A DNA stretch of 64,000 nucleotides. Origin: Escherichia coli (GTDB taxonomy: Bacteria > Pseudomonadota > Gammaproteobacteria > Enterobacterales > Enterobacteriaceae). Shown piece after piece: positions 16,547 through 58,014 of the stretch. Where the stretch lies: NCBI RefSeq assembly GCF_016903815.1, contig NZ_CP069973.1; one strand, given 5' to 3'. The notes below the pieces were generated by a model. It saw nothing but the letters and a program-made list of their open reading frames with translations. It did no database searches and had not been told where the DNA came from. The position numbers and the translations under genes are program-made. The stretch's first letter is position 1. Each line of letters opens with the position of its first letter.

Positions 16547-17545
16547 ATGAAACTTTTTCGTATCCTCGATCCTTTCACCTTAACCCTGATCACGGTGGTG
16601 TTGCTGGCCTCTTTCTTTCCGGCCAGAGGCGATTTCGTCCCCTTCTTTGAAAATCTGACCACCGCAGCTATTGCCCTGCTGTTCTTTATGCACGGCGCGA
16701 AGTTGTCACGTGAAGCGATTATTGCTGGCGGTGGTCACTGGCGACTGCATTTGTGGGTAATGTGCAGCACCTTTGTACTGTTTCCGATTCTGGGCGTGCT
16801 GTTTGCCTGGTGGAAACCGGTAAATGTCGACCCGATGCTCTACTCCGGTTTTCTCTACTTGTGCATTCTCCCCGCTACCGTGCAGTCTGCAATCGCCTTT
16901 ACTTCAATGGCGGGCGGTAACGTCGCGGCAGCGGTTTGTTCTGCGTCAGCATCCAGCCTGTTGGGGATTTTCCTTTCACCATTGCTGGTTGGTCTGGTGA
17001 TGAATGTTCACGGTGCGGGAGGCAGCCTTGAGCAGGTCGGTAAAATTATGCTGCAATTGCTGCTGCCGTTTGTATTGGGGCATCTTTCCCGGCCGTGGAT
17101 TGGTGACTGGGTGTCGCGCAATAAAAAATGGATTGCGAAAACTGACCAGACGTCCATTCTGTTGGTGGTTTATACAGCGTTCAGCGAAGCCGTCGTTAAT
17201 GGTATCTGGCATAAAGTTGGCTGGGGATCATTGCTGTTTATCGTGGTGGTCAGCTGCGTTCTTCTGGCTATCGTGATTGTAGTTAACGTCTTTATGGCAC
17301 GCCGACTGGGCTTCAATAAGGCAGATGAAATTACTATCGTCTTTTGTGGTTCGAAAAAGAGTCTGGCAAATGGCATCCCGATGGCAAACATTCTGTTCCC
17401 CACATCGGTGATCGGTATGATGGTGCTGCCTCTGATGATTTTCCATCAGATCCAATTGATGGTCTGTGCGGTGCTGGCGCGTCGATACAAACACCAGACC
17501 GAACAGTTACAGGCGCAGCAGGAAAGCCGCGCCAATAAAGCTTAA
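16547..17545 (+). CDS. yfeH: bile acid:Na+ symporter-family membrane protein YfeH
   Basis: 332-aa multi-TM ORF; recognised as YfeH. Confidence 0.88.
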   Translation: MKLFRILDPFTLTLITVVLLASFFPARGDFVPFFENLTTAAIALLFFMHGAKLSREAIIAGGGHWRLHLWVMCSTFVLFPILGVLFAWWKPVNVDPMLYSGFLYLCILPATVQSAIAFTSMAGGNVAAAVCSASASSLLGIFLSPLLVGLVMNVHGAGGSLEQVGKIMLQLLLPFVLGHLSRPWIGDWVSRNKKWIAKTDQTSILLVVYTAFSEAVVNGIWHKVGWGSLLFIVVVSCVLLAIVIVVNVFMARRLGFNKADEITIVFCGSKKSLANGIPMANILFPTSVIGMMVLPLMIFHQIQLMVCAVLARRYKHQTEQLQAQQESRANKA

Positions 17546-23678: not shown

Positions 23679-25406
23679 ATGATTTCAGGCATTTTAGCAT
23701 CCCCGGGTATCGCTTTCGGTAAAGCTCTGCTTCTGAAAGAAGACGAAATTGTCATTGACCGGAAAAAAATTTCTGCCGACCAGGTTGATCAGGAAGTTGA
23801 ACGTTTTCTGAGCGGTCGTGCCAAGGCATCAGCCCAGCTGGAAACGATCAAAACGAAAGCTGGTGAAACGTTCGGTGAAGAAAAAGAAGCCATCTTTGAA
23901 GGGCATATTATGCTGCTCGAAGATGAGGAGCTGGAGCAGGAAATCATAGCCCTGATTAAAGATAAGCACATGACAGCTGACGCAGCTGCTCATGAAGTTA
24001 TCGAAGGTCAGGCTTCTGCCCTGGAAGAGCTGGATGATGAATACCTGAAAGAACGTGCGGCTGACGTACGTGATATCGGTAAGCGCCTGCTGCGCAACAT
24101 CCTGGGCCTGAAGATTATCGACCTGAGCGCCATTCAGGATGAAGTCATTCTGGTTGCCGCTGACCTGACGCCGTCCGAAACTGCACAGCTGAACCTGAAG
24201 AAGGTGCTGGGTTTCATCACCGACGCGGGTGGCCGTACTTCCCACACCTCTATCATGGCGCGTTCTCTGGAACTGCCTGCTATCGTGGGTACCGGTAGCG
24301 TCACCTCTCAGGTGAAAAATGACGACTATCTGATTCTGGATGCCGTAAATAATCAGGTTTACGTCAATCCAACCAACGAAGTTATTGATAAAATGCGCGC
24401 TGTTCAGGAGCAAGTGGCTTCTGAAAAAGCAGAGCTTGCTAAACTGAAAGATCTGCCAGCTATTACGCTGGACGGTCACCAGGTAGAAGTGTGCGCTAAC
24501 ATTGGTACGGTTCGTGACGTTGAAGGTGCAGAGCGTAACGGCGCTGAAGGCGTTGGTCTGTATCGTACTGAGTTTCTGTTCATGGACCGCGACGCGCTGC
24601 CCACTGAAGAAGAACAGTTTGCTGCTTACAAAGCAGTGGCTGAAGCGTGTGGCTCGCAGGCGGTTATCGTTCGTACCATGGACATCGGCGGCGACAAAGA
24701 GCTGCCATACATGAACTTCCCGAAAGAAGAGAACCCGTTCCTCGGCTGGCGCGCTATCCGTATCGCGATGGATCGTAAAGAGATCCTGCGCGATCAGCTC
24801 CGCGCTATCCTGCGTGCCTCGGCTTTCGGTAAATTGCGCATTATGTTCCCGATGATCATCTCTGTTGAAGAAGTGCGTGCACTGCGCAAAGAGATCGAAA
24901 TCTACAAACAGGAACTGCGCGACGAAGGTAAAGCGTTTGACGAGTCAATTGAAATCGGCGTAATGGTGGAAACACCGGCTGCCGCAACAATTGCACGTCA
25001 TTTAGCCAAAGAAGTTGATTTCTTTAGTATCGGCACCAATGATTTAACGCAGTACACTCTGGCAGTTGACCGTGGTAATGATATGATTTCACACCTTTAC
25101 CAGCCAATGTCACCGTCCGTGCTGAACTTGATCAAGCAAGTTATTGATGCTTCTCATGCTGAAGGCAAATGGACTGGCATGTGTGGTGAGCTTGCAGGCG
25201 ACGAACGTGCTACACTTCTGTTGCTGGGGATGGGTCTGGACGAATTCTCTATGAGCGCCATTTCTATCCCGCGCATTAAGAAGATTATCCGTAACACGAA
25301 CTTCGAAGATGCGAAGGTGTTAGCAGAGCAGGCTCTTGCTCAACCGACAACGGACGAGTTAATGACGCTGGTTAACAAGTTCATTGAAGAAAAAACAATC
25401 TGCTAA
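23679..25406 (+). CDS. ptsI: PTS Enzyme I (PEP-protein phosphotransferase)
   Basis: 575-aa [34 protein letters not shown]; active-site His region [14 protein letters not shown]. Confidence 0.99.
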
Positions 25407-25446
25407 TCCACGAGATGCGGCCCAATTTACTGCTTAGGAGAAGATC

Positions 25447-25956
25447 ATGGGTTTGTTCGATAAACTGAAATCTCTGGTTTCCGACGACAAGAAGGATACC
25501 GGAACTATTGAGATCATTGCTCCGCTCTCTGGCGAGATCGTCAATATCGAAGACGTGCCGGATGTCGTTTTTGCGGAAAAAATCGTTGGTGATGGTATTG
25601 CTATCAAACCAACTGGAAACAAAATGGTCGCGCCTGTAGACGGCACCATTGGTAAAATCTTTGAAACCAACCACGCGTTCTCTATCGAATCTGATAGCGG
25701 CGTTGAACTGTTCGTCCACTTCGGTATCGACACCGTTGAACTGAAAGGCGAAGGCTTCAAGCGTATTGCTGAAGAAGGTCAGCGCGTGAAAGTTGGCGAT
25801 ACTGTCATTGAATTTGATCTGCCGCTGCTGGAAGAGAAAGCCAAGTCTACCCTGACTCCGGTTGTTATCTCCAACATGGACGAAATCAAAGAACTGATCA
25901 AACTGTCCGGTAGCGTGACTGTGGGTGAAACCCCGGTTATCCGCATCAAGAAGTAA
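25447..25956 (+). CDS. crr: PTS glucose-specific EIIA (EIIA-Glc)
   Basis: 169-aa [42 protein letters not shown] matches E. coli Crr. Confidence 0.99.
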
Positions 25957-25970
25957 TTCTTGCCGCAGTG

Positions 25971-26000
25971 AAAAATGGCGCCCATCGGCGCCATTTTTTA
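25971..26000. terminator. bidirectional terminator between crr and pdxK
   Basis: aaaaatggcgcc-catc-ggcgccattttttat. Confidence 0.8.
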
Positions 26001-26849
26001 TGCTTCCGCCAGCGGCGGCAAAATCAATTCATCGCTCTCATGCTGCTGGGTGTAGCGCATCACTTCCAGTACGCGCAACCCCGCACGGTGCACCGCATCG
26101 TTTAACGCCTTCCCTTTCAGCAAACCACTGATAAGCTGAGCACAAAACAGGTCGCCAGTCCCTTTCAGGTCGGTTTTTACCCGTGAATGGGAAATGACAT
26201 TCACGCTGTCGGCACTGACCACCACCACCTGCATCTCCTGATTTTCTTCATTACCGGAGGCGCTGGTAATCACCACCCATTTTAATGTGTCTGAAAGCAG
26301 ACTTTTTGCGGCAGCAATGGCACTGTCGAGATCGCGGCAATTTTTACCGGTCAGGATTTCCAGCTCAAAGATATTGGGGGTAATTCCCTGCGCCAGCGGC
26401 AGTAAATATTGTCGATACGCCTCGGGAAGGTCAGGTTTGACATAAATTCCGCTATCAATATCGCCAATCACTGGATCGACCATGATCAATAGGTCAGGAT
26501 GATCTTTGCGTAGCGCAGTCAGCCACTCGGCAAGGATTTTGATTTGCGATGCCGTTCCCATATAGCCCGTGGTTACAGCACGAAGTTGGCGCAACGCATC
26601 ACGCTCCTGAAGCGCACGCAAATAGCCGCTAAACCATTCGTCCGGAATCGCACCACCGTAGAAAGTGTCATAATGCGGTGTATTGCTCAGCAATACCGTC
26701 GGCACGGCAAAGACATTCAGGCCGTTCTGTTTGATAGCAGGCACGGCAATGCTGTTGCCTACGCTGCCGTACACTACCTGCGACTGCACGGCGACGATAT
26801 CTGCCTGCAATGCCCTGCTCTTATCGTTAAACAACAACAAACTACTCAT
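25998..26849 (-). CDS. pdxK: pyridoxal/pyridoxine/pyridoxamine kinase
   Basis: 283-aa ORF; ribokinase-like PfkB fold; position after crr. Confidence 0.93.
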
Positions 26850-26862
26850 TTAATTTTTTCTC

Positions 26863-26928
<66 letters not shown>

Positions 26929-26953
26929 CACAAAACAAGGATAAGGTAATTCA

Positions 26954-27322
26954 ATGAAGAAAATCATTTGTCTGGTCATTACGCTGCTAATGACACTCCC
27001 CGTTTACGCGAAGTTAACTGCCCATGAAGAAGCCCGTATCAACGCCATGCTGGAGGGATTAGCACAGAAAAAGGATTTGATATTTGTGCGTAACGGCGAT
27101 GAACACACCTGTGATGAAGCGGTTTCCCACCTGCGTCTGAAGTTCGACAACACGCGCAACCGCATTGATACCGCCGAGCAGTTTATTGATAAGGTGGCCT
27201 CGTCGTCATCGATTACCGGGAAGCCGTATATTGTGAAGATGCCCGGTAAGAGCGATGAAAATGCGCAACCTTTTTTACATGCGCTGATTGCGCAGACGGA
27301 TAAAACGGTGCCTGCGCAATAA
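26954..27322 (+). CDS. yfeK: secreted protein YfeK (DUF5329)
   Basis: 122-aa ORF with signal peptide [19 protein letters not shown]. Confidence 0.85.
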
Positions 27323-27324
27323 TC

Positions 27325-28236
27325 TTAAATCCCCGCCCCCTGGCTAAAATGCTCTTCCCCAAACACCCCGGTAGAAAGGTAGCGATCGCCGCGATCGCAG
27401 ATGATCGCGACCACCACCGCGCCGGGGTTAGCTTTTGCCACGCGCAGTGCTCCGGCAACCGCGCCGCCGGAGCTGACGCCACAGAATATTCCTTCCCGCA
27501 CTGCCAGTTCGCGCATGGTGTTTTCCGCTTCTCGCTGATGAATATCCAGCACCTCATCCACCAGAGAAGCGTTGAAAATCCCCGGCAGATATTCCGCAGG
27601 CCAGCGGCGAATGCCGGGAATGCTACTGCCCTCTTCCGGCTGCAGGCCAACAATGGTCACCGGTTTGGATTGTTCGCGCATAAAGCGTGAAACGCCGGTG
27701 ATAGTGCCGGTTGTTCCCATGCTGGAGACAAAATGGGTAATGCGCCCGCCAGTTTGCTGCCAGATTTCCGGCCCGGTGGTGGTGTAATGGGCGTAGGGAT
27801 TATCAGGATTATTAAACTGATCGAGCAGCTTTCCTTCACCACGATTCGCCATTTCAAGCGCCAGATCGCGCGCACCTTCCATGCCCTGCTCTTTGGTGAC
27901 AAGAATCAGTTCCGCACCATAAGCACGCATCGCCGCACGGCGTTCCTGGCTCATGTTGTCGGGCATCAGCAATTTCATGCGATAGCCTTTAAGCGCGGCA
28001 ATCATTGCCAGCGCAATGCCGGTGTTACCACTGGTGGCTTCGATCAGCACGTCCCCCGGTTTAATTTCCCCGCGCTTTTCCGCCTCGACGATCATCGAAA
28101 GTGCCGCACGATCTTTTACCGAACCTGCCGGGTTATTGCCTTCCAGTTTCAACCAGATTTCACTGCCGTTATTAGGCCCCATTCGCTGCAACTTCACCAG
28201 AGGCGTATTGCCAATTGTTTGTTCTAATGTACTCAC
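27325..28236 (-). CDS. cysM: cysteine synthase B (O-acetylserine sulfhydrylase B)
   Basis: ORF 27325-28314; likely GTG start at 28234-28236 giving (M)STLEQTIGNTPLVKLQRMGP, 303 aa; PLP motif SVKDRAA. Confidence 0.95.
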   Translation of the reverse strand: MSTLEQTIGNTPLVKLQRMGPNNGSEIWLKLEGNNPAGSVKDRAALSMIVEAEKRGEIKPGDVLIEATSGNTGIALAMIAALKGYRMKLLMPDNMSQERRAAMRAYGAELILVTKEQGMEGARDLALEMANRGEGKLLDQFNNPDNPYAHYTTTGPEIWQQTGGRITHFVSSMGTTGTITGVSRFMREQSKPVTIVGLQPEEGSSIPGIRRWPAEYLPGIFNASLVDEVLDIHQREAENTMRELAVREGIFCGVSSGGAVAGALRVAKANPGAVVVAIICDRGDRYLSTGVFGEEHFSQGAGI

Positions 28237-28259
28237 GATCTCTGTCCATACGTGGTGTT

Positions 28260-28295
28260 GCCTGATGCGACGCTTGCGCGTCTTATCAGGCCTAC
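28260..28295. repeat. REP element between cysM and cysA
   Basis: gcctgatgcgacgcttgcgcgtcttatcaggcctac matches REP consensus. Confidence 0.85.
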
Positions 28296-28369
28296 AGGTT
28301 ACAAACCTTGCCATTAAAAAGCCCGGATCGCGGGAAGCGCCTCCGGGCGTTTAACATTCACTCAACCTA

Positions 28370-29467
28370 TCAGGCGCTTTGTGCGAGAGCAAGTTCCTCA
28401 TCGCGGGTTTCAATACGCTCGTCGCCGTTATACAGCCGCGCATGTTGCAGACCAACGAATAAACGCTCGCCACGTTGCGGGGCGTCGTCGCCGTGCATCA
28501 CGACCGTCAGCGGTTCGTTGTACCACCCCAGCGGCTGCACGACTAATTGGGTGTAGTGGCCTTTCGGGCTGGCTTCCAGTACCTGTACCGGCAGCGGCGA
28601 ATCGAGGCTGGTACGGCGGCTGATATCCACTTCCCACGGACGCAGGAAGAGATCCACTGGCCCCTGATACGCAGGTGTATAGCCCAGCGGCCAGCGATGT
28701 GCGCCAACATGGAACTGCCCGCCGCGAATGGTTCCCTGCAGGCGGTTCACTTCGCCCATAAATTCGAGTACAAAACGGGTCGCTGGTTCGCGCCATACCT
28801 GGTCCGGTGCATCAGCCTGCTCGATATTGCCCTGGCTCATCACCACTACACGATCGGCTACTTCGGTCGCCTCTTCCTGGTCATGGGTCACGAACACGCT
28901 GGTGAATTTCAGCTCTTCATGCAACTGACGCAGCCAGCGACGCAGCTCTTTACGCACCTGAGCATCCAACGCGCCAAACGGTTCATCAAGCAGCAGAATT
29001 TGCGGTTCTACAGCCAGCGCACGCGCCAGTGCCACACGCTGTTTCTGGCCGCCGGAAAGCTGCGCCGGATAACGATCCGCCAGATGGGCAAGCTGGACCA
29101 TCTCGAGCAATTTTGTCACTTTCGCTTTGATAGCTGCGGCATTCGGGCGCTCGCGACGCGGCAGCACCGTCAGGCCGAAAGCGATATTGTCGAACACCGT
29201 CATATGGCGGAACAGCGCATAGTGCTGGAACACGAAACCAACTTTACGATCGCGCGCATGCAGGCGGCTGACGTCGGTGCCGTGGAAGCGAATATGCCCG
29301 CTGGTTTGATGCTCCAGCCCGGCGATAATGCGCAGCAGCGTGGTTTTCCCGGAACCGGACGGCCCCAGCAACGCGACCATCTGACCAGAAGGAATATCCA
29401 GTGAGATATCGTTCAGCACCTGGGTGCGACCAAAAGACTTCTTAATATTGGCAATCTCAATGCTCAT
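28370..29467 (-). CDS. cysA: sulfate/thiosulfate ABC transporter ATP-binding subunit
   Basis: 365-aa ORF; Walker [13 protein letters not shown] signature LSGGQKQR. Confidence 0.97.
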
Positions 29468-30332
29468 GATGTTCCTCCTGCTGCGCGCGTTTTTCCTGAT
29501 TCTCCAGACGCCACTGCAACATACTCTTTAAAAACAGGGTGATAATCGCCATCAGCGTCAACAACGCGGCAGCGGTAAAGGAGCCGACGGTGTTGTAGTC
29601 TTGCTCCAGCAATTCAATCTGTAACGGCAGCGAAAGTGTTTCGCCGCGAATCGAGCCGGAAACCACCGACACCGCACCAAACTCGCCAATCGCGCGGGCG
29701 TTGGTCAGCACCACGCCATAAAGCAGCGCCCAGCGGATGTTCGGCAGCGTGACGCGGCGAAACATCTGCCAGCCAGATGCGCCCAGCAAAATCGCCGCTT
29801 CGTCTTCCTGGCTGCCCTGGCTTAACATCACCGGCACCAGCTCACGCACCACAAACGGACACGTCACGAAGATGGTGACCAGCACCATTCCCGGCCAGGA
29901 GAACATAATTTGCAGATTATGTTCATCCAGCCAGCCGCCGAGCGGGCCGTTAGAGCCGTAAAACAGCAGATACACCAGACCGGCAACCACCGGCGACACG
30001 GCAAACGGAATGTCCAGCAGCGTCAGCAGCAACTGGCGTCCGGGGAAGTTAAAGCGCGTCACCAGCCATGCCAGCAGAATGCCGAACACCAGGTTCACCG
30101 GCACGGCAATCAGCGCAATCATCACCGTCAGCCAGATGGCGTGCAGCATGTCCGGATCGGCCAGATTCTGTAAAACTGGCATCAGCCCTTTACTGAACGC
30201 CTGCACAAAGATGTAAATCATCGGCACCAGCAGGATGAACGCCGAAACCAGCATCCCGATGCCAATCAGAAACCATTTGCCCCAGTTAATCGGGCGCGCG
30301 TCATAACGCTTCAACTGTGTCACTTCCGCCAT
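29457..30332 (-). CDS. cysW: sulfate/thiosulfate ABC transporter permease
   Basis: 291-aa membrane ORF; overlaps cysA start (translational coupling). Confidence 0.95.
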
Positions 30333-50363: not shown

Positions 50364-50477
50364 CGCCTTTACTCCCTGTTAGTTGTTATTTATTGCCAAT
50401 GCTGAAAGTGGGTTTTTCCCTCACTCTGGAAGCCGAGGGGCCGGGGTGAGGGTAATTGTTTGCACCGGCGCGACTCT

Positions 50478-50526
50478 GTTCCCCTCACCCTAACCCTCTC
50501 CCCAAAGGGGCGAGGGGACTGTCCGT
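50478..50526. repeat. GC-rich palindromic intergenic repeat (family not confidently assigned), copy 1, between eutH and eutG
   Basis: gttcccctcaccctaaccctctccccaaaggggcgaggggactgtccgt; about 94% identical to copy at 63871-63923; partial inverted copy at 50408-50445. Confidence 0.75.
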
Positions 50527-50532
50527 ACACTT

Positions 50533-51720
50533 TTATTGCGCCGCTGCGTACAGGCCGACAATCTGCTCCAGGCTGGCGGTACGCGGGTTGCTGCGCAGAC
50601 AAATATCTTCCAGCGCGGCCTGCGCCCATGCACCGTAATGCGCAGATGTCGCACCAATATCGCCCAGTCGTTTACCAATCCCGACTTCCGCAATCAGCTC
50701 ACTTACCGCGTTAATAGCGTCACGATCGTCGGATTTTTTAGTTCGCAGCGCCCGACCAATCTGACTAAAGCGTTCACGACAAACCATCCGGTTAAATTCC
50801 ATCACCGTTGGCAACAACATGGCGTTCGCCAGACCGTGCGGAATATGCAGCGCCGCCCCCGGCTGATGCGCCATCGCGTGGCATAACCCAAGCCCCGCAC
50901 TGGAAAACGCCATTCCCGCCATGCATGAAGCCAGCAACATGCTCTCGCGCGCGGCAAGGTCATGACCGTAGCCCACCGCTTTCGGCAGTGATTTACCAAT
51001 CATCGCGATTGCGCCAATCGCCAGACTGTCGGTAAACGGTGTGGCGTTCAGCGCGCTGTACGCTTCAATAGCATGGGTTAACGCGTCGATACCGGTCATC
51101 GCCGTGACATGCGACGGCACGCCTTCGGTCAGCGCAGCGTCGAGAATCGCCACATCCGGCATCAGCGAGGCGTGGGCTAACACCTGCTTGCGCCCGCTCA
51201 CCGCGTCGATAATCACCGTTACGTTGGTGGTTTCAGAACCGGTTCCGGCGGTCGTTGGAATGGCAATCAACGGCAGGCGCGGTTGCAGAACGCTGGTTTC
51301 TGACATTTCTGCCAGCGTGCTATCCGGGTTTGTCACCAGCAACGCCACGGCTTTCGCCGCATCCAGCACCGAGCCGCCGCCAAACGCGATCACCCCGTCA
51401 CAACCTGATTCACGCAACTGCGCCACGGCTGCACACACGTCGGTGATGCACGGTTCGCCCACCGGACATGGCCAGAGCGTCATGGCGATACCTTTAACGG
51501 CCAGGCTACGCGTCAGCCCGGCGGTCATCCCCGCCTGATGCAAAAAGCTGTCTGCCATCACGAACAGATGTTTCAGCCCACGCGTTTGCGCTTGCTGCCC
51601 GCAACTGCTCATCGCGCCCGGACCGCAAAGCGTCACCGGTGGAACGCTAAATGTTTTTACCCGTTGCAGATTCAGGGTATCGAACGCCTGAAAGAGCGCG
51701 GTCTGCAATTCATTTTGCAT
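50533..51720 (-). CDS. eutG: iron-containing alcohol dehydrogenase EutG
   Basis: 395-aa ORF; Fe-ADH family. Confidence 0.95.
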   Translation of the reverse strand: MQNELQTALFQAFDTLNLQRVKTFSVPPVTLCGPGAMSSCGQQAQTRGLKHLFVMADSFLHQAGMTAGLTRSLAVKGIAMTLWPCPVGEPCITDVCAAVAQLRESGCDGVIAFGGGSVLDAAKAVALLVTNPDSTLAEMSETSVLQPRLPLIAIPTTAGTGSETTNVTVIIDAVSGRKQVLAHASLMPDVAILDAALTEGVPSHVTAMTGIDALTHAIEAYSALNATPFTDSLAIGAIAMIGKSLPKAVGYGHDLAARESMLLASCMAGMAFSSAGLGLCHAMAHQPGAALHIPHGLANAMLLPTVMEFNRMVCRERFSQIGRALRTKKSDDRDAINAVSELIAEVGIGKRLGDIGATSAHYGAWAQAALEDICLRSNPRTASLEQIVGLYAAAQ

Positions 51721-52546
51721 AGATCCCCTCCGCTTTCTCTCGCCCGCTACTGGCGATCGCCAGCGGGGTCATAAACAAACTGTGCTGCGGTAAATGCACC
51801 TGTAACGCCGGGAATTGTTTGCAAAACAGTTCCGCAACGCCCGGTTGCATACAGGAGCCGCCCGCCAGCCATAAATCAGTAATGCCCTGCCCTTCAATAT
51901 GCCGGGCGACAATGTCCGCCATTTTTTCGTACACCGGTTTCACCGCGGGCCAAATCTCTTCACCGTGACCGCGCTTGTACTGCTCCGCCTCTTCCAGCGA
52001 AATACGGCGATTTCCGGCGAGAGTCAGAGAGATATGATGTCCGCCGGTGGCTTCATCTGCCGAGTAAGTCACCTTGCCCTTTTTCACGATGGCAATGCCG
52101 GTGGTGCCGCCGCCGATATCCACTACACCGGCGTTGTCCAGTTGCAGCAGATCCGCGACTGCGGTTGGCTCATCCAGCACATGGCTCACTTCCAGCCCGG
52201 CAGACTCCAGCACGTTGATGGAAATACGCGGGTCCGTACCTGGAGGAAAAGAGGTCGCCGCATGGCTAAAACGGCGACCGAATTGCTGCTCGAGGGTGTC
52301 GAGATGGCGACGAACAATGGTGACCGCACCGAAGAAATCCCAGACGATGCCGTCGCGGACCACATCAGCCCAGTCGAGGCATACCGCCACCGGCTGACCG
52401 TCGCGGTCAACAACCATCGACACCACATCGCAGGTGCCCAGATCCACCCCCAGCCACAGCGGAGATTCCGTCGCGGCAGGCGTCTGGTTACACAGCGTTG
52501 CTGCTATGTGCAGACGTGGGGTGAGCCATTGTTCGTCGTGCGCCAT
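51710..52546 (-). CDS. eutJ: putative chaperonin EutJ (DnaK/actin-like ATPase fold)
   Basis: 278-aa ORF; ASKHA phosphate motifs (VDLGTCD, VVDIGGGTTG). Confidence 0.95.
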   Translation of the reverse strand: MAHDEQWLTPRLHIAATLCNQTPAATESPLWLGVDLGTCDVVSMVVDRDGQPVAVCLDWADVVRDGIVWDFFGAVTIVRRHLDTLEQQFGRRFSHAATSFPPGTDPRISINVLESAGLEVSHVLDEPTAVADLLQLDNAGVVDIGGGTTGIAIVKKGKVTYSADEATGGHHISLTLAGNRRISLEEAEQYKRGHGEEIWPAVKPVYEKMADIVARHIEGQGITDLWLAGGSCMQPGVAELFCKQFPALQVHLPQHSLFMTPLAIASSGREKAEGIYAK

Positions 52547-52556
52547 CTGTTACTCC

Positions 52557-53960
52557 TTAAACAATGCGAAACGCATCGACTAATACACAGCGACGCAGAC
52601 GGACAAACGTCCGCGCGCTGGTTACCCCTTCACCGGTTGGCGTGGTGATGGTCATGGTGGTCCAGCCTTCCCCGCCCAGCCCCAGCCCGGCAATACACGG
52701 TCCGTTCTTAACGAAAATGCTGGTATCAATGGCATTCGCCATCTGGTTCATGTTTTCGATGTTGCGCGAGTGCATTGCCGCCGTGTGATGGCAACCGCCT
52801 TCCAGTTTCACCGCCAGCGCAATGGCATCCGCCACGTTGGCGACGCGCACGACGGGCAGCACCGGCATCATCAGTTCAGTCACAGCAAACGGATGTTCTG
52901 CGGTGGTTTCTACAAACAGCAGTCGCGTTTGTTCCGGAACTTTAAGGCCGATTGCCGCCGCGATTTTCGCCGCATCGCGACCAACCCAGTCACGGCTGAC
53001 GGTGCCTTTTCCGCGCTCGTCGATATTTTTCAGCAACACCGGTTGCAGCTGCTGCGCCTGCTCTGCGGTCAGTTTCACCGCGTGCTGGCCTTCCATCAGA
53101 CGCATCAGTTCATCGGCTACGCTATCCACAACAATCAGTACCTTTTCGTCGGCACAAATGATGTTGTTATCGAAAGACGCGCCTTTGACGATGGACTGAG
53201 CAGCACGGGCGAGGTCAGCGGTTTCATCCACCACTACCGGCGGGTTGCCAGCGCCTGCGGCAATCAGACGTTTATTGGTGTGTTTACGCGCCGCTTCTAC
53301 TACCGCTTCGCCGCCGGTCACCACCAGCAGGCCGATGCCCGGAAACTTGAACAAACGTTGAGCGGTTTCGATATCCGGATTTGCCACAGTAACCAGTAAG
53401 TTTTCCGGCCCGCCTGCGGCAACAATCGCCTGGTTGAGCAGCGTAATCGCCCGCTGGGAGACTTTTTTCGCCGCCGGATGCGGGGCAAAAATGACGCTGT
53501 TGCCCGCGGCAATCAGGCTTATGGCGTTATTAATTACGGTTGCCGCCGGGTTGGTGGACGGAGTTACCGAAGCCACCACGCCCCAGGGCGCGTTTTCAAT
53601 TAAAGTCAGGCCGTTGTCGCCAGTCAGCACCTGCGGAGAGAGGCACTCAACGCCCGGTGTGCCGCGCGCCTGAGCAACGTTTTTGGCAAATTTATCTTCG
53701 ACGCGGCCCATGCCGGTTTCACTGACGGCAAGCTCCGCTAAATCTCTGGCGTGTTTTTCGCCTGCTTCACGAATGGCAGCAATGGCTAACTGGCGCATTG
53801 CCACGCTCTTTAACCCTTGCTGGGCAATTTTGGCTGCCGCAACGGCGTCATCCAGGGACGCGAAAACGCCCATCTCATGAACGGCGGCGGGCGGCGTATC
53901 ACTGCTTTGCATTTTCAGCAGTACCGCTTTCACCACCTGTTCAATATCCTGTTGATTCAT
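52557..53960 (-). CDS. eutE: CoA-acylating acetaldehyde dehydrogenase EutE
   Basis: 467-aa ORF; aldehyde dehydrogenase family with N-terminal encapsulation-type helix. Confidence 0.96.
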   Translation of the reverse strand: MNQQDIEQVVKAVLLKMQSSDTPPAAVHEMGVFASLDDAVAAAKIAQQGLKSVAMRQLAIAAIREAGEKHARDLAELAVSETGMGRVEDKFAKNVAQARGTPGVECLSPQVLTGDNGLTLIENAPWGVVASVTPSTNPAATVINNAISLIAAGNSVIFAPHPAAKKVSQRAITLLNQAIVAAGGPENLLVTVANPDIETAQRLFKFPGIGLLVVTGGEAVVEAARKHTNKRLIAAGAGNPPVVVDETADLARAAQSIVKGASFDNNIICADEKVLIVVDSVADELMRLMEGQHAVKLTAEQAQQLQPVLLKNIDERGKGTVSRDWVGRDAAKIAAAIGLKVPEQTRLLFVETTAEHPFAVTELMMPVLPVVRVANVADAIALAVKLEGGCHHTAAMHSRNIENMNQMANAIDTSIFVKNGPCIAGLGLGGEGWTTMTITTPTGEGVTSARTFVRLRRCVLVDAFRIV

Positions 53961-53971
53961 GATGTTCTGCC

Positions 53972-54259
53972 TTATTTGTGGAAAATTACCTGACCGCCAG
54001 ACACCACCTCATCGACAATGCCAATCACGCACAGATCGACCGGTGACGTTTCGCTTTTATGCGCCTGGCGGGCGGAACTGCCACTCACCAGCAACACCCA
54101 CTCCCCGGTTCCCGCGCCAATATTGTCGATGGCGACGGCGCATTGCCCGTCAGGATTACCTTGTGGATCAATCATTTCCACCATCAGCAATTTGTCATGC
54201 GCCAGTCCGTGATGGCGTACGGTACAAACAATTTGTCCAGTGACGACTGCCAGTTTCAT
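53972..54259 (-). CDS. eutN: microcompartment vertex protein EutN (BMV/CcmL family)
   Basis: 95-aa ORF MKLAVVTGQIVCTVRHHGLAHDKLLMVE. Confidence 0.96.
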   Translation of the reverse strand: MKLAVVTGQIVCTVRHHGLAHDKLLMVEMIDPQGNPDGQCAVAIDNIGAGTGEWVLLVSGSSARQAHKSETSPVDLCVIGIVDEVVSGGQVIFHK

Positions 54260-54365
54260 ACCCGCCTCCGTGGCGTATTTCAGGTAAAAGCTCCCCCTAC
54301 CCTCCGCGGAAGGTAAACTGAAAAAGGAGAGAGCGTGACGCCCGAATCGACGTCACACAGGGTGA

Positions 54366-54659
54366 TTACAGGTTGCTGCTATCGCCTTTCAGGCCGATCG
54401 GGAAGACTTCTTCCAGGTCGCCGTGCGGACGCGGGATAACGTGTACAGATACCAGCTCGCCGATACGCTGTGCCGCGGCGGCACCTGCGTCGGTCGCGGC
54501 TTTACAGGCTGCAACATCACCACGAACCATGGCAGTACACAGGCCGCCGCCAATCTGCTTAACACCAACCAGCTTGACGCGCGCAGCTTTCACCATCGCG
54601 TCAGAAGCCTCAATCAGTGCAACCAGGCCCCGGGTTTCGATCATTCCTAATGCTTCCAT
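54366..54659 (-). CDS. eutM: major microcompartment shell protein EutM (BMC-H)
   Basis: ORF 54366-54701; start [28 protein letters not shown], 97 aa. Confidence 0.97.
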
Positions 54660-54697
54660 TGTGCTTTCCTCTTTATCAGGGTCCAGAACGGGACCGT

Positions 54698-55714
54698 TCA
54701 TTCAACCAGTGTTTGTAAACTGCTTTCGCGGTTCACTTCTGTCTGACGCGGCACAGCTGCCACCAGCGCCAGCTCGATAATTTCCTGCACGCTACAACCA
54801 CGAGAGAGATCGTGCATCGGCGCGGCAAGCCCTTGTATCAATGGCCCGACGGCACGATATCCGCCGAGTCGTTGTGCGATTTTGTAGCCAATATTTCCGG
54901 CTTCCAGCGACGGAAAAACCATCACATTGGCCTTGCCTTGTAGCGGGCTGGCAGGCGCTTTTTGCGCCGCCACTTCCGGCACGAAGGCGGCGTCAAACTG
55001 CAACTCGCCATCCACCACCAGCTTCGGTGCGCGCTCACGGACGATTTCTGTCGCCTGCTGGACGTTGGCAACGCAGGGGTGACGGGCACTACCGTTGCTG
55101 GAAAACGACAGCATCGCCACGCGCGGTTCTTCTCCGGTGATGGCGCGCCAGGTTTCGGCGCTGGCAAGCGCGATATCCGCCAGTTGCGCCGCCGTCGGCT
55201 GTGGCACTACGCTGCAATCGGCAAAGCCCAATGCGGGGCCACTGTACTGTGGCAGCATCAGGAAAATGGAGGAGAGCGTTTTACAGCCTGGCTGTAAGCC
55301 AATAATGCGTAATCCGGCACGCAGCACATTCGCCGTGGAAGAGAGATTGCCCGCGATACAGACATCCGCTGTCCCGGCGCTGACCATTGCGGCAGCGAAC
55401 ATCAGCGGATCGGTGAGTTTTTCCAACGCATCCGGCGGCGTTTTTTCGCCCGCACGGGCCAGCCAGCGGAGAGCAAATTCTTCCCGCATTGCGAGGTTGC
55501 CATGCGGATCTATCACCTGTAGCCCGTCCATCGCCACGCCGTGACTGAGCGCAAACTGACGAAGTTCAAACGGATTGGCGACCAGAATGGGCGTTGCCAG
55601 ACCTTGTTGATGTAAATATTGCGCGGCTTTCAGCACACGTTGATCTAACGCATCCGGAAAAACCACTCTGGCGGGCGCTCGCAACGCCAGTTCACGACAA
55701 CGTTCAATAATCAT
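54698..55714 (-). CDS. eutD: phosphotransacetylase EutD
   Basis: 338-aa [37 protein letters not shown] family. Confidence 0.96.
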
Positions 55715-56514
55715 TGCGTTTCCCCCAGTCGTTGTTGGATCTGCTTCACCGTTAGCGGCTGCTTCGTTACGCTCAGGATCATCATCACGTAGACCGTGCT
55801 CGAAAGGCGGTTCAGCGCCTGCAAGATGTCCGGGCGTAATACTTCAAAACTGCGGGTTATAAACACCTGCGCCGCTACGGTTTCGGTTTCCCGCACTTTG
55901 GTGCGTAGCAGATTGAGTAACGCCGCATCGCGCCCGTGGCTGGCTTCCGGCACCAGATGATCGTGACCAAGATAGCGCAGCGGCTGATGAGAAAGCCGAT
56001 GCAGATCTTCGTCAGAAAGCCCGACAATCGCTTGGCAGGCCAGCGGTTCCCCCAGCGCATCGGCGCGCATAATGTTGCCAAGACGCGAGCGGATGTCCGC
56101 CAGCCACGGCTGCCACGGTTCCGCCAGTTCAATTTGCAGCCACACTGCCAGCGCAATGGTGCTGTCGAGAACCGCGCGAAAACCCAGACGCGGATCGCTT
56201 TTGGCGACCATTTTTTCCGCCGACAGGTGAGTCAGCGTGTCCGGCTTTTTCGCCACCGGCTGGCGGCACAGTTCGCAGCACGCCTGCCGATGTTCATCAC
56301 TACTGGTCAGCCCGTGAACGGGCTGCGGCTGCTGCTGTTCATCGTCAACAAACAGGCGGCCCTGCTCGTCAATAAACTTGATGCGCAGATGGCGGCTTTC
56401 CAGCAACTCCCGGGCAGAGGGCGTCAGGCGACTGTCCGCAGGGAGATGGATCTCTGCGCCTTCGCTAAGCGTATGATTCGCTCTTAGCCATGCTTCGGTG
56501 ATGAAATCTTTCAT
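55711..56514 (-). CDS. eutT: corrinoid (cobalamin) adenosyltransferase EutT
   Basis: 267-aa ORF; 4-bp overlaps with eutD and eutQ. Confidence 0.95.
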
Positions 56515-57212
56515 AGGGATTGCCAGTTAGCCGGCCAGGCGACATACAGGAATTTCACGCTGGATGTCGTACCAAATTCGATGCTGGAGCCTTTCGGGAT
56601 AAACATTACGTCGCCTGCTTTGGCGATCATGGTTTCGCCTTCGTGGCGAACATGCAGCTCCCCTTCCAGCACCATGTCGATTTCGTCGTAGTTCAGGGTC
56701 CACGGGAAGAATGCGTTCTCCCACTGCATAAAACCGGCGGCCATGCTGCTGCCGTCGTCTCCGGTCACAAGATCAGTCAAGCCCACGCAATGCGGCTCTG
56801 CGCCGTCGAAACGACCAAACTTGACGCTGCTGCCATCAATAACTTTGATGCCGCCTTTGCCGGTCACCGATTTGAAACTCGGCTGCATTGCACCCTGCTC
56901 CAGTGACTGTTTTTCCTTCATCACTTTTTCCATCAGCTGCGCGACCAGGCTTTCGGTAAACTGGCCTTCCGGTAGCTGGGCGATGATGGTTTCGCGGATA
57001 CGCTGGCTTTCGGTTTTATCGGCTGGCACGCAGGCGGGAACGGACGCCGTTACCGGGGTCGATTCATCACATTCAGTGATGGTAAAACCCAGTAGATCTG
57101 CCACTTCACGGGCTTCCGGGGTAATAATGCTGGCGCGCAGAACCACGGACATTGCCTGTTCGCCGCGCGCGTGTGCTTCACGAATATCATTCGCTGTGAT
57201 GAGTTTTTTCAC
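56511..57212 (-). CDS. eutQ: cupin-fold protein EutQ (acetate kinase activity reported)
   Basis: 233-aa ORF; C-terminal cupin. Confidence 0.94.
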   Translation of the reverse strand: MKKLITANDIREAHARGEQAMSVVLRASIITPEAREVADLLGFTITECDESTPVTASVPACVPADKTESQRIRETIIAQLPEGQFTESLVAQLMEKVMKEKQSLEQGAMQPSFKSVTGKGGIKVIDGSSVKFGRFDGAEPHCVGLTDLVTGDDGSSMAAGFMQWENAFFPWTLNYDEIDMVLEGELHVRHEGETMIAKAGDVMFIPKGSSIEFGTTSSVKFLYVAWPANWQSL

Positions 57213-57666
57213 CTGCTTCCTCCTGTTTGGTGAGAGATGCCAGATAATCCACCAGTTGCTGCACGCTTTGCGGGTCGTGGCTGTTTAGCTCGAAAATCGG
57301 CTCTTCGAAGCCCGTCTCAAGCAATAACTTTCGCGTTGCGGCGACGTCAGCATCTGGCATGTCCGTTTTACTGATGACGGCGATTTGCCGTTTGCTGACG
57401 CCAATATCCAGCAACCCGGCAGGCAACCGACTTTCCGGGTCATTCGCGCCGTGGACATAGATCAGCATGTCCACATCCTGTAGCGTGGTAATTAAGGCGT
57501 GATACCAGCGGGGATGGCTAAAATATTCACCCGGCGTATCAATATCACCCTTATCATTAAATTCTACGGCCTGCGTTTTTCTGGCGAGGGTATAATCTCC
57601 CTGCAACGCATTAAATAACGTTGTTTTTCCTGCCCCGACGGTACCCACAAACGCAATTCGTTTCAT
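57187..57666 (-). CDS. eutP: P-loop NTPase EutP
   Basis: 159-aa ORF MKRIAFVGTVGAGKTTLFNALQG (Walker A); 26-bp overlap with eutQ. Confidence 0.95.
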   Translation of the reverse strand: MKRIAFVGTVGAGKTTLFNALQGDYTLARKTQAVEFNDKGDIDTPGEYFSHPRWYHALITTLQDVDMLIYVHGANDPESRLPAGLLDIGVSKRQIAVISKTDMPDADVAATRKLLLETGFEEPIFELNSHDPQSVQQLVDYLASLTKQEEAGEKTHHSE

Positions 57667-57678
57667 GAATGCCTCGTA

Positions 57679-58014
57679 TTAACTTTTGGTCATTTCACAA
57701 AGCGTATAATTTAATAAACGCCCTAAACCGCTGACGGTTTGTGATAACGCTTCTTCTACTGCACCCACCGAGCCATAAATCACCAACGCGCCGCTAAAAC
57801 GGTCGAGAAAACCGATATGCACATCGGCGGCTTTTAGTGCTAAATCACCGGCGATCATCGCCGTTTCGCCGGGAGTTAGCGTCATAATGCCGATTGCGCC
57901 CGCATCAGGAACGCCGATTTTCTTCGCCAGTTCCTCGCCGGGATGCGCGATGAGATGCGCCAGTGTGACCTGTTTACCGGGCACAAATTCCTGAATGATG
58001 CGTTCTTTATCCAT
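57679..58014 (-). CDS. eutS: microcompartment shell protein EutS (circularly permuted BMC)
   Basis: ORF 57679-58086; likely start [26 protein letters not shown], 111 aa; first gene of eut operon. Confidence 0.95.

Follow-up and report, generated by a model that had tools for sequence, protein, structure and literature searches.

In the 64,000-nucleotide stretch of Escherichia coli DNA analysed here (hereafter the window), the convergent genes yfeK and cysM meet tail to tail, with only two base pairs between their stop codons and no yfeS gene between them, and this yfeS-less junction is the ordinary state of the locus, shared by the majority of E. coli. Taken together, the evidence makes it quite likely that the window carries the empty, probably ancestral allele of a presence/absence polymorphism, at which transcript 3′ ends would be formed with the help of a hairpin, the Rho factor and polymerase collision. 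The model strain K-12, judging from sequence comparison, is probably the derived, insert-bearing minority at this site. Thousands of public genomes already have the yfeK/cysM junction in their annotation.

The two genes can be delimited without ambiguity. On the plus strand, the yfeK reading frame (26954..27322) encodes 122 amino acids with a signal-peptide-like N-terminus and the C-terminus ...PAQ*, and its product is assigned to DUF5329, the YfeK family, by Pfam (E=6.8e-32). The frame closes with GCG CAA TAA, so that its stop occupies 27320-27322. The gene cysM (27325..28236), the last of cysPUWAM, lies on the minus strand and encodes cysteine synthase B, as judged from its translation and the RefSeq annotation; read from the K-12-equivalent GTG start, the protein has 303 aa, and the stop appears on the plus strand as TTA at 27325-27327. 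What separates the stops is the dinucleotide TC (27323-27324; TAA-TC-TTA). The preliminary description of this locus had reported the 2-bp gap, and direct reading, the list of open reading frames and the RefSeq coordinates all agree with it. The nearest annotated match, E. coli strain 7/2 (NZ_CP023820.1, 2812121-2876120), differs from the window at 2 of the 64,000 positions, and RefSeq places yfeK and cysM there exactly as they lie in the window. The junction is a deterministic sequence feature with no statistical signal involved. That it should be an artefact of assembly or annotation, for instance a repeat that was collapsed or a stop called wrongly, is so improbable that it can be set aside: the idea is refuted by some 4000 complete genomes that were assembled independently and show the same junction, RefSeq annotates it identically, and both reading frames are full length and conserved.

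The annotation of K-12 MG1655 gives the order pdxK, yfeK (b2419), yfeS (b2420), cysM (b2421) for the locus b2418-b2421, so that the preliminary description, which had placed yfeS between yfeK and cysM in K-12 and had called it absent here, was correct on both counts. Alignment to K-12, proposed there as the way of defining the difference, yields a single indel between two collinear blocks. In blastn, window positions 26851-27316 correspond to 4240-4705 of the extracted K-12 locus (L001) and 27320-27700 to 5667-6048; with the junctions read base by base, the K-12-specific segment spans L001 4706-5666 (961 bp), and the difference from the filled allele is confined to this one indel. The stops of yfeK and cysM lie ~955 bp apart in K-12 because yfeS (735 bp) and a 188-bp REP-containing spacer intervene, together with a 32-bp spacer on the yfeK side. 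K-12 YfeS is a 244-aa protein with a WGR domain, and the 188-bp spacer gives a strong fold of the REP/BIME type (z=-4.2 to -5.0). An 8-bp direct repeat, ATTAATCC, marks the K-12 segment at either edge, and K-12 yfeK ends ...PAEGN*, two codons beyond the ...PAQ* of the window. The loci are otherwise closely alike, with the same flanking genes in the same order and orientation, an identical core of the sigma-E-type yfeK promoter, 92.6% nucleotide identity in yfeK and 98% identity between the CysM proteins. Set against this are the ~955 extra base pairs, the longer yfeK and a weakened yfeK-terminal stem in K-12, where yfeK and yfeS are reported as a sigma-E unit, yfeKS, whereas yfeK of the window has no downstream partner gene.

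How common each arrangement is can be read from the complete E. coli genomes. A 901-bp probe spanning the junction found a contiguous match in 4040 of 5425 of them, and an 84-bp junction probe matched 4008, while the 961-bp K-12 segment was found in 1381 (25%), BW25113 and many other laboratory derivatives of K-12 among them. The yfeS-less and yfeS-bearing states together cover all but ~5 of 5426 complete genomes, the former accounting for ~74%, and both segregate in E. coli. The empty allele is present in ATCC 11775, clone D i14, an ST69 isolate and O104:H4, which belong to phylogroups B2 (the first two), D and B1, respectively. Minor variation exists within the empty class, as in the E. coli allele FCI29, which has a TCC spacer and hence a 3-bp gap (TAATCC-TTA, like the right edge of the K-12 segment). 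The framing implied by the preliminary description, that something is missing or unusual in the window, does not survive these counts: the yfeS-less state is the majority and is shared with relatives of E. coli. The gene order of K-12 is therefore not the default of the species, some three quarters of sequenced E. coli having yfeK and cysM abutting.

For the comparison across species, one genome was taken per species with YfeK, yielding 22 loci in which yfeK, yfeS, cysM and pdxK were located and the junctions read. Close abutment recurs in several of them. A genome labelled E. coli whose flanks are ~90-93% identical to those of K-12 (L002) has a 2-bp gap (TAA-tc-TTA), as does Pseudocitrobacter faecalis (TAA-ac-TTA); the gap is 1 bp in Enterobacteriaceae UBA5654, and in Escherichia sp. 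E1V33 the two reading frames overlap by 12 bp. Wider spacings are found in C. amalonaticus (31 bp), a Superficieibacter sp. (32 bp) and Entomohabitans (57 bp). A Pseudocitrobacter metagenome-assembled genome (MAG) holds yfeS at this position, encoding a protein with 94% amino acid identity, and has K-12-like edges (...AEGN* and ATTAATCC on both sides).

Other species carry different cargo in the slot. In E. albertii, 1.8 kb of very low GC content (0.345) with two minus-strand reading frames lie between yfeK and cysM; in C. sedlakii, the slot measures 3.8 kb and contains two reading frames of ~630-650 aa, one with TPR repeats; in S. electus, it holds a DUF4440/SnoaL reading frame whose end overlaps the cysM stop. 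The right breakpoint falls exactly at the cysM stop in both the yfeS and the E. albertii insertions, and the left breakpoints of the filled alleles fall at varying positions within the last yfeK codons. Unrelated cargo in one slot might suggest a hotspot of site-specific integration; this is disfavoured by the variable left breakpoints and by the lack of an integrase. The insertions look more like illegitimate events tolerated between two conserved genes than like the use of a dedicated attachment site.

Which of the two E. coli states came first is best approached through the cassette itself. Its GC content is low (0.39-0.40 for yfeS, compared with 0.47-0.59 in the flanks), and between K-12 and the Pseudocitrobacter MAG yfeS is 95.9% identical at the nucleotide level, as against 68.6% for pdxK, 85.2% for yfeK, 89.6% for cysM and 92.8% for cysA. 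The insert thereby combines the two marks of horizontal origin, namely atypical composition and less divergence between taxa than its surroundings. Low GC, cross-genus conservation above that of the flanks and the lack of a precise deletion product all lead us to regard yfeS with its BIME as an inserted cassette whose empty site the window shows, and the cassette appears to move horizontally because the identical slot in a Pseudocitrobacter genome holds it with the same edges. On the grounds of distribution, composition and divergence between taxa, the empty site is probably ancestral. The yfeS cassette has neither a transposase nor an integrase, and its insertion is not described by a clean target-site duplication, because the sequences to the left of the ATTAATCC repeat differ as well (CAA vs GAAGGAAAT).

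The reverse polarity, in which an ancestral yfeS was deleted in the lineage of the window and in most other E. coli, bringing the stops together, has some points in its favour: the 8-bp repeat that flanks the cassette in both K-12 and the Pseudocitrobacter MAG would be a possible substrate for deletion, yfeS occupies the same site in two genera, and the FCI29 empty allele reproduces the TAATCC-TTA of the K-12 right edge. We nevertheless regard it as very unlikely. Recombination between the repeats predicts a definite product (...GAAGGAAATTAATCCTTA...), and none of 5426 genomes matched a synthetic query of it; what came closest over the full length (93%) was the ordinary empty allele, so that a simple repeat-mediated deletion can be rejected. 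The sampled empty alleles, including those of divergent Escherichia and of P. faecalis, instead all end ...GCGCAATAA(TC/AC)TTA. The minority status of yfeS, its low GC and its lower divergence between genera than that of any flanking gene likewise speak against a deletion.

With the window read as the empty site, the question becomes how the two transcripts end. The preliminary description had noted that no terminator hairpin lies between the stops, which is true in so far as there is no room for one and a consensus scan of 26800-28400 found no intrinsic-terminator-like site; the qualification is that a conserved 11-bp stem-loop adjoins the gap from within yfeK. (The same scan returned one promoter-like site, no more than expected from shuffled sequence.) This inverted repeat occupies the last 12 yfeK codons (27287..27320), with the arms ATTGCGCAGAC (27287-27297) and GCCTGCGCAAT (27310-27320) enclosing a 12-nt loop (27298-27309). 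The repeat closes with the T of the yfeK stop codon, and on the minus-strand RNA it begins 4 nt past the stop of cysM. The fold is the stronger on the minus strand, where the 11-bp stem has a predicted dG of -16.3 kcal/mol and 3 of 200 shuffled sequences fold as well (a modest z=-2.66); on the plus strand, an A.C mismatch takes the place of a G.U pair, and dG is -14.1 kcal/mol with a likewise modest z of -1.6.

The stem-loop is conserved. All 10 of the yfeS-less alleles sampled retain it, as does P. faecalis, and a 53-bp probe covering hairpin and junction matched 3759 genomes across 80% or more of its length, each of the full-length matches listed having at most two mismatches. The last 60 nt of yfeK are 100% identical between typical E. 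coli and P. faecalis, as compared with 62-68% at the yfeK 5′ end; this identity could stem from recombination instead of constraint. Two variants in the stem, A-U to G.U in L002 and G.U to A-U in a second locus (L026), both keep the pairing on the minus strand, and the change in L002 breaks the plus-strand pair. Support from covariation, given two variable stem positions, is thin. In yfeS-bearing alleles, where the element lies ~955 bp from cysM, a C.C mismatch enters the stem and dG is weaker, between -11.5 and -12.2, and in Escherichia sp. E1V33 the 3′ arm has been lost altogether.

The stem-loop sits at the meeting point of two convergent genes and folds on both strands, as a bidirectional terminator would. 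The stem is followed by CAGCGCAU in the minus-strand RNA and by AAUCUUAAAU in the plus-strand RNA, neither strand offering the U-tract of an intrinsic terminator. A second, small stem-loop (27263..27284; 5 bp, GCGCA/TGCGC, 12-nt loop) emerged when the minus strand was folded over 27240-27330, and AUUUUCAU comes after it in that RNA; as a terminator of cysM, this combination is a weak candidate, its U-rich tail not being conserved in other empty alleles. With Rfam, run over 25000-30000 with permissive cut-offs, no family was assigned to the junction. The scan did pick up a sub-threshold, partial match to naRNA4, a REP-derived family, in the cysM-cysA spacer, as well as a chance match to mir-23. 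The hairpin at 27287-27320 is, from its sequence and predicted fold, a plausible candidate for a 3′-end element; it might fit a pause site or exonuclease barrier for the cysM transcript, or a bidirectional terminator, the support for either being thin.

Upstream of yfeK, direct reading identified a sigma-E-type promoter-like site on the plus strand (26893..26920; GAAACTT, a 16-nt spacer and TCAAA), which resembles the sigma-E consensus GGAACTT-N16-TCAAA. Its core is identical to that of K-12, the aligned upstream stretch differing by one base outside the core. In K-12, yfeK or yfeKS belongs to the sigma-E regulon (PMC2731931, PMC2685091, PMC3326320). In yfeS-less strains, polymerases started at yfeK with sigma-E would accordingly run directly into the cysM 3′ end. 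A literature search for yfeK and yfeS brought up sigma-E regulon and overexpression data only, and no account of the polymorphism or of where the transcripts end. The untranslated RNA that read-through from yfeK would produce, antisense to the cysM C-terminus (27323..27400, plus strand), is rich in C and poor in G and may be a candidate region for Rho loading: its first 78 nt contain 37% C and 21% G, which gives a C/G ratio of 1.81, above the 95th percentile (1.73) and below the 99th (2.15) for segments of 78 nt across the 64 kb. This composition is compatible with Rho loading. Read-through from cysM becomes C-rich only from ~200 nt downstream.

Convergent transcripts that run into each other are the rule in E. 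coli. In K-12, 276 of 370 convergent operons (75%) overlap at complementary 3′ ends, by 286 nt on average (PMC4161252, Conway et al. 2014; the main text names neither cysM nor yfeK). Stem-loop bidirectional terminators as well as termination by polymerase collision are attributed to convergent E. coli pairs in a preprint (Ju et al. 2019, cited in bioRxiv 10.1101/2022.10.23.513370). The yfeK/cysM junction resembles these operons in leaving no room for separate terminators and in having an inverted repeat that could fold in both transcripts. It departs from them in that their elements are intergenic, whereas the yfeK stem-loop lies inside a coding sequence and has no flanking A/U tracts. It is reasonable to infer that the yfeK and cysPUWAM transcripts each read into the coding region of the partner, as is usual at convergent operons of E. 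coli.

Our proposed explanation accordingly begins with the polymorphism, in which an empty allele (TAA-TC-TTA) alternates with a ~955-bp low-GC cassette of yfeS and a REP/BIME element, whose presence also alters the C-terminus of yfeK from ...AQ* to ...AEGN*. Because the empty allele lacks an intergenic terminator, the 3′ end of each of its transcripts would be expected to form inside the partner gene. The stem-loop at 27287-27320 may pause or stabilise both transcripts, and mainly the cysPUWAM mRNA, while untranslated read-through would be removed by Rho, by head-on collisions of polymerases or by both. The two mRNAs should overlap to some degree at their 3′ ends, as at most convergent operons of E. 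coli. Antisense interference between yfeK and cysPUWAM, which the preliminary description had raised, is possible under this explanation, and it would not be distinctive, convergent overlap being common.

A more ambitious reading turns that overlap into a switch of the excludon type, in which sigma-E-driven transcription of yfeK into cysM under envelope stress would lower CysM or cysPUWAM expression, or the reverse, by collision or by RNase III cleavage of the duplex, and from which the insert of K-12 would have uncoupled the genes. Several points favour it: the promoter-like site is intact, with a core identical to that of K-12, yfeK/yfeKS is induced with sigma-E (PMC2731931, PMC2685091, PMC3326320), no terminator separates yfeK from cysM, the junction is highly conserved, and regulation of this kind is described in bacteria (PMC12288877). 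The prevalence of overlap weakens the case, given that overlapping 3′ ends are present at 75% of convergent operons with no function known for them (PMC4161252), and E. coli RNase III double-stranded RNA products are ~38-fold scarcer at 3′ than at 5′ overlaps (PMC7373196, the main text of which names neither cysM nor yfeS). Moreover, roughly one in four E. coli genomes has yfeK and cysM ~955 bp apart, with no consequence known, and in related species the slot is taken up by spacers of 31-57 bp or by unrelated cargo. On balance, we think such a switch improbable.

A related and similarly doubtful proposal centres on the stem-loop, which would then be a true 3′-end element of cysPUWAM, that is, a coding-embedded bidirectional terminator or mRNA stabiliser. 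As yfeK is driven by sigma-E, convergent transcription under envelope stress would then adjust the expression of cysteine synthase B and of the genes for thiosulfate/sulfate uptake. If this were true, insertion of yfeS and its BIME would have uncoupled yfeK from cysM, and K-12 would be unrepresentative for such regulation. More generally, should either the hairpin or sigma-E-driven convergent transcription affect cysM, conclusions drawn in K-12 about the cysPUWAM 3′ end or about 'yfeKS' would not be transferable to most clinical and environmental strains. The significance of the junction is small beyond bookkeeping, the conserved hairpin embedded in coding sequence being its sole mildly interesting element.

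Even on the scale of the window, a tail-to-tail gap of 2 bp is not unusual. Three of the 11 convergent pairs annotated there have a gap of 5 bp or less, yfeK/cysM (+2) being joined by yfeH/ypeB, which overlap by 4 bp (-4), and hemF/eutR, which lie 5 bp apart (+5); both resemble it in meeting tail to tail across a spacer of at most 5 bp with no intergenic terminator.

The yfeS cassette, which lies between yfeK and cysM in K-12, is not confined to Escherichia. A Pseudocitrobacter MAG carries it (positions 4376-5316 of that locus, L004) with edges identical to those in K-12, and P. faecalis (L005, 4369-4372) has an empty site, the counterpart of window positions 27323-27324; both alleles are therefore present in two genera. 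At 95.9% nucleotide identity, the MAG and K-12 cassettes resemble each other more closely than does any of the flanking genes, and this excess over the flanks suggests inter-genus transfer of the cassette via recombination in the conserved flanking sequence.

In other species, unrelated cargo occupies the same slot. That of E. albertii (L008, 4331-6149) is low in GC (0.345) and consists of two minus-strand ORFs, one of which has a weak match to DKNYY, while C. sedlakii (L010, 4364-8185) carries two ORFs of ~630-650 aa, one of them with TPR repeats. In S. electus (L011, 4376-4891), a DUF4440/SnoaL ORF overlaps the cysM stop by 4 bp.

The empty site itself also varies. E. coli strain FCI29 (L032, NZ_CM172720.1, 443-451) carries a rare empty allele whose gap measures 3 bp (TAA-tcc-TTA), matching the right-edge sequence TAATCC-TTA in K-12, and this allele may look like the pre-insertion site. 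In Escherichia sp. E1V33 (L003, 1417-1428), a small deletion has removed the 3′ arm of the hairpin at the end of yfeK, so that the convergent ORFs of yfeK and cysM share their last 12 bp.

Over window positions 26954-29467, nucleotide identity to K-12 is 92.6% for yfeK and 95.5% for both cysM and cysA, a divergence that is fairly high by within-species standards; pdxK stands at 97.7%. Across genomes, identities to the 901-bp junction probe fall mostly in the 90-99% bands. Together, these values suggest that the alleles around the locus are old or recombining.

Mobile and repeat elements were also seen. In one genome, that of the K-12-like strain LR-03 (H31, NZ_AP027474.1 1336381-1338117), yfeS is broken into two WGR-domain fragments by an IS1A insertion. 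Within the window, an IS200C-family tnpA (38034-38492) lies between pbp4b (yfeW) and yfeX, and the cysM-cysA spacer of the cysPUWAM operon contains a REP-type palindromic element (28259-28291) with a partial, sub-threshold match to Rfam naRNA4 (37.9 bits vs. a gathering score of 59.5).

The eut operon is annotated as continuous from eutR to eutS (43176-58014). In K-12, prophage CPZ-55 lies within this operon, which would make it a further site at which K-12 is the insert-bearing form. Finally, the window holds two other very tight convergent pairs, yfeH/ypeB, overlapping by 4 bp (17542-17545), and hemF/eutR, 5 bp apart (43171-43175).
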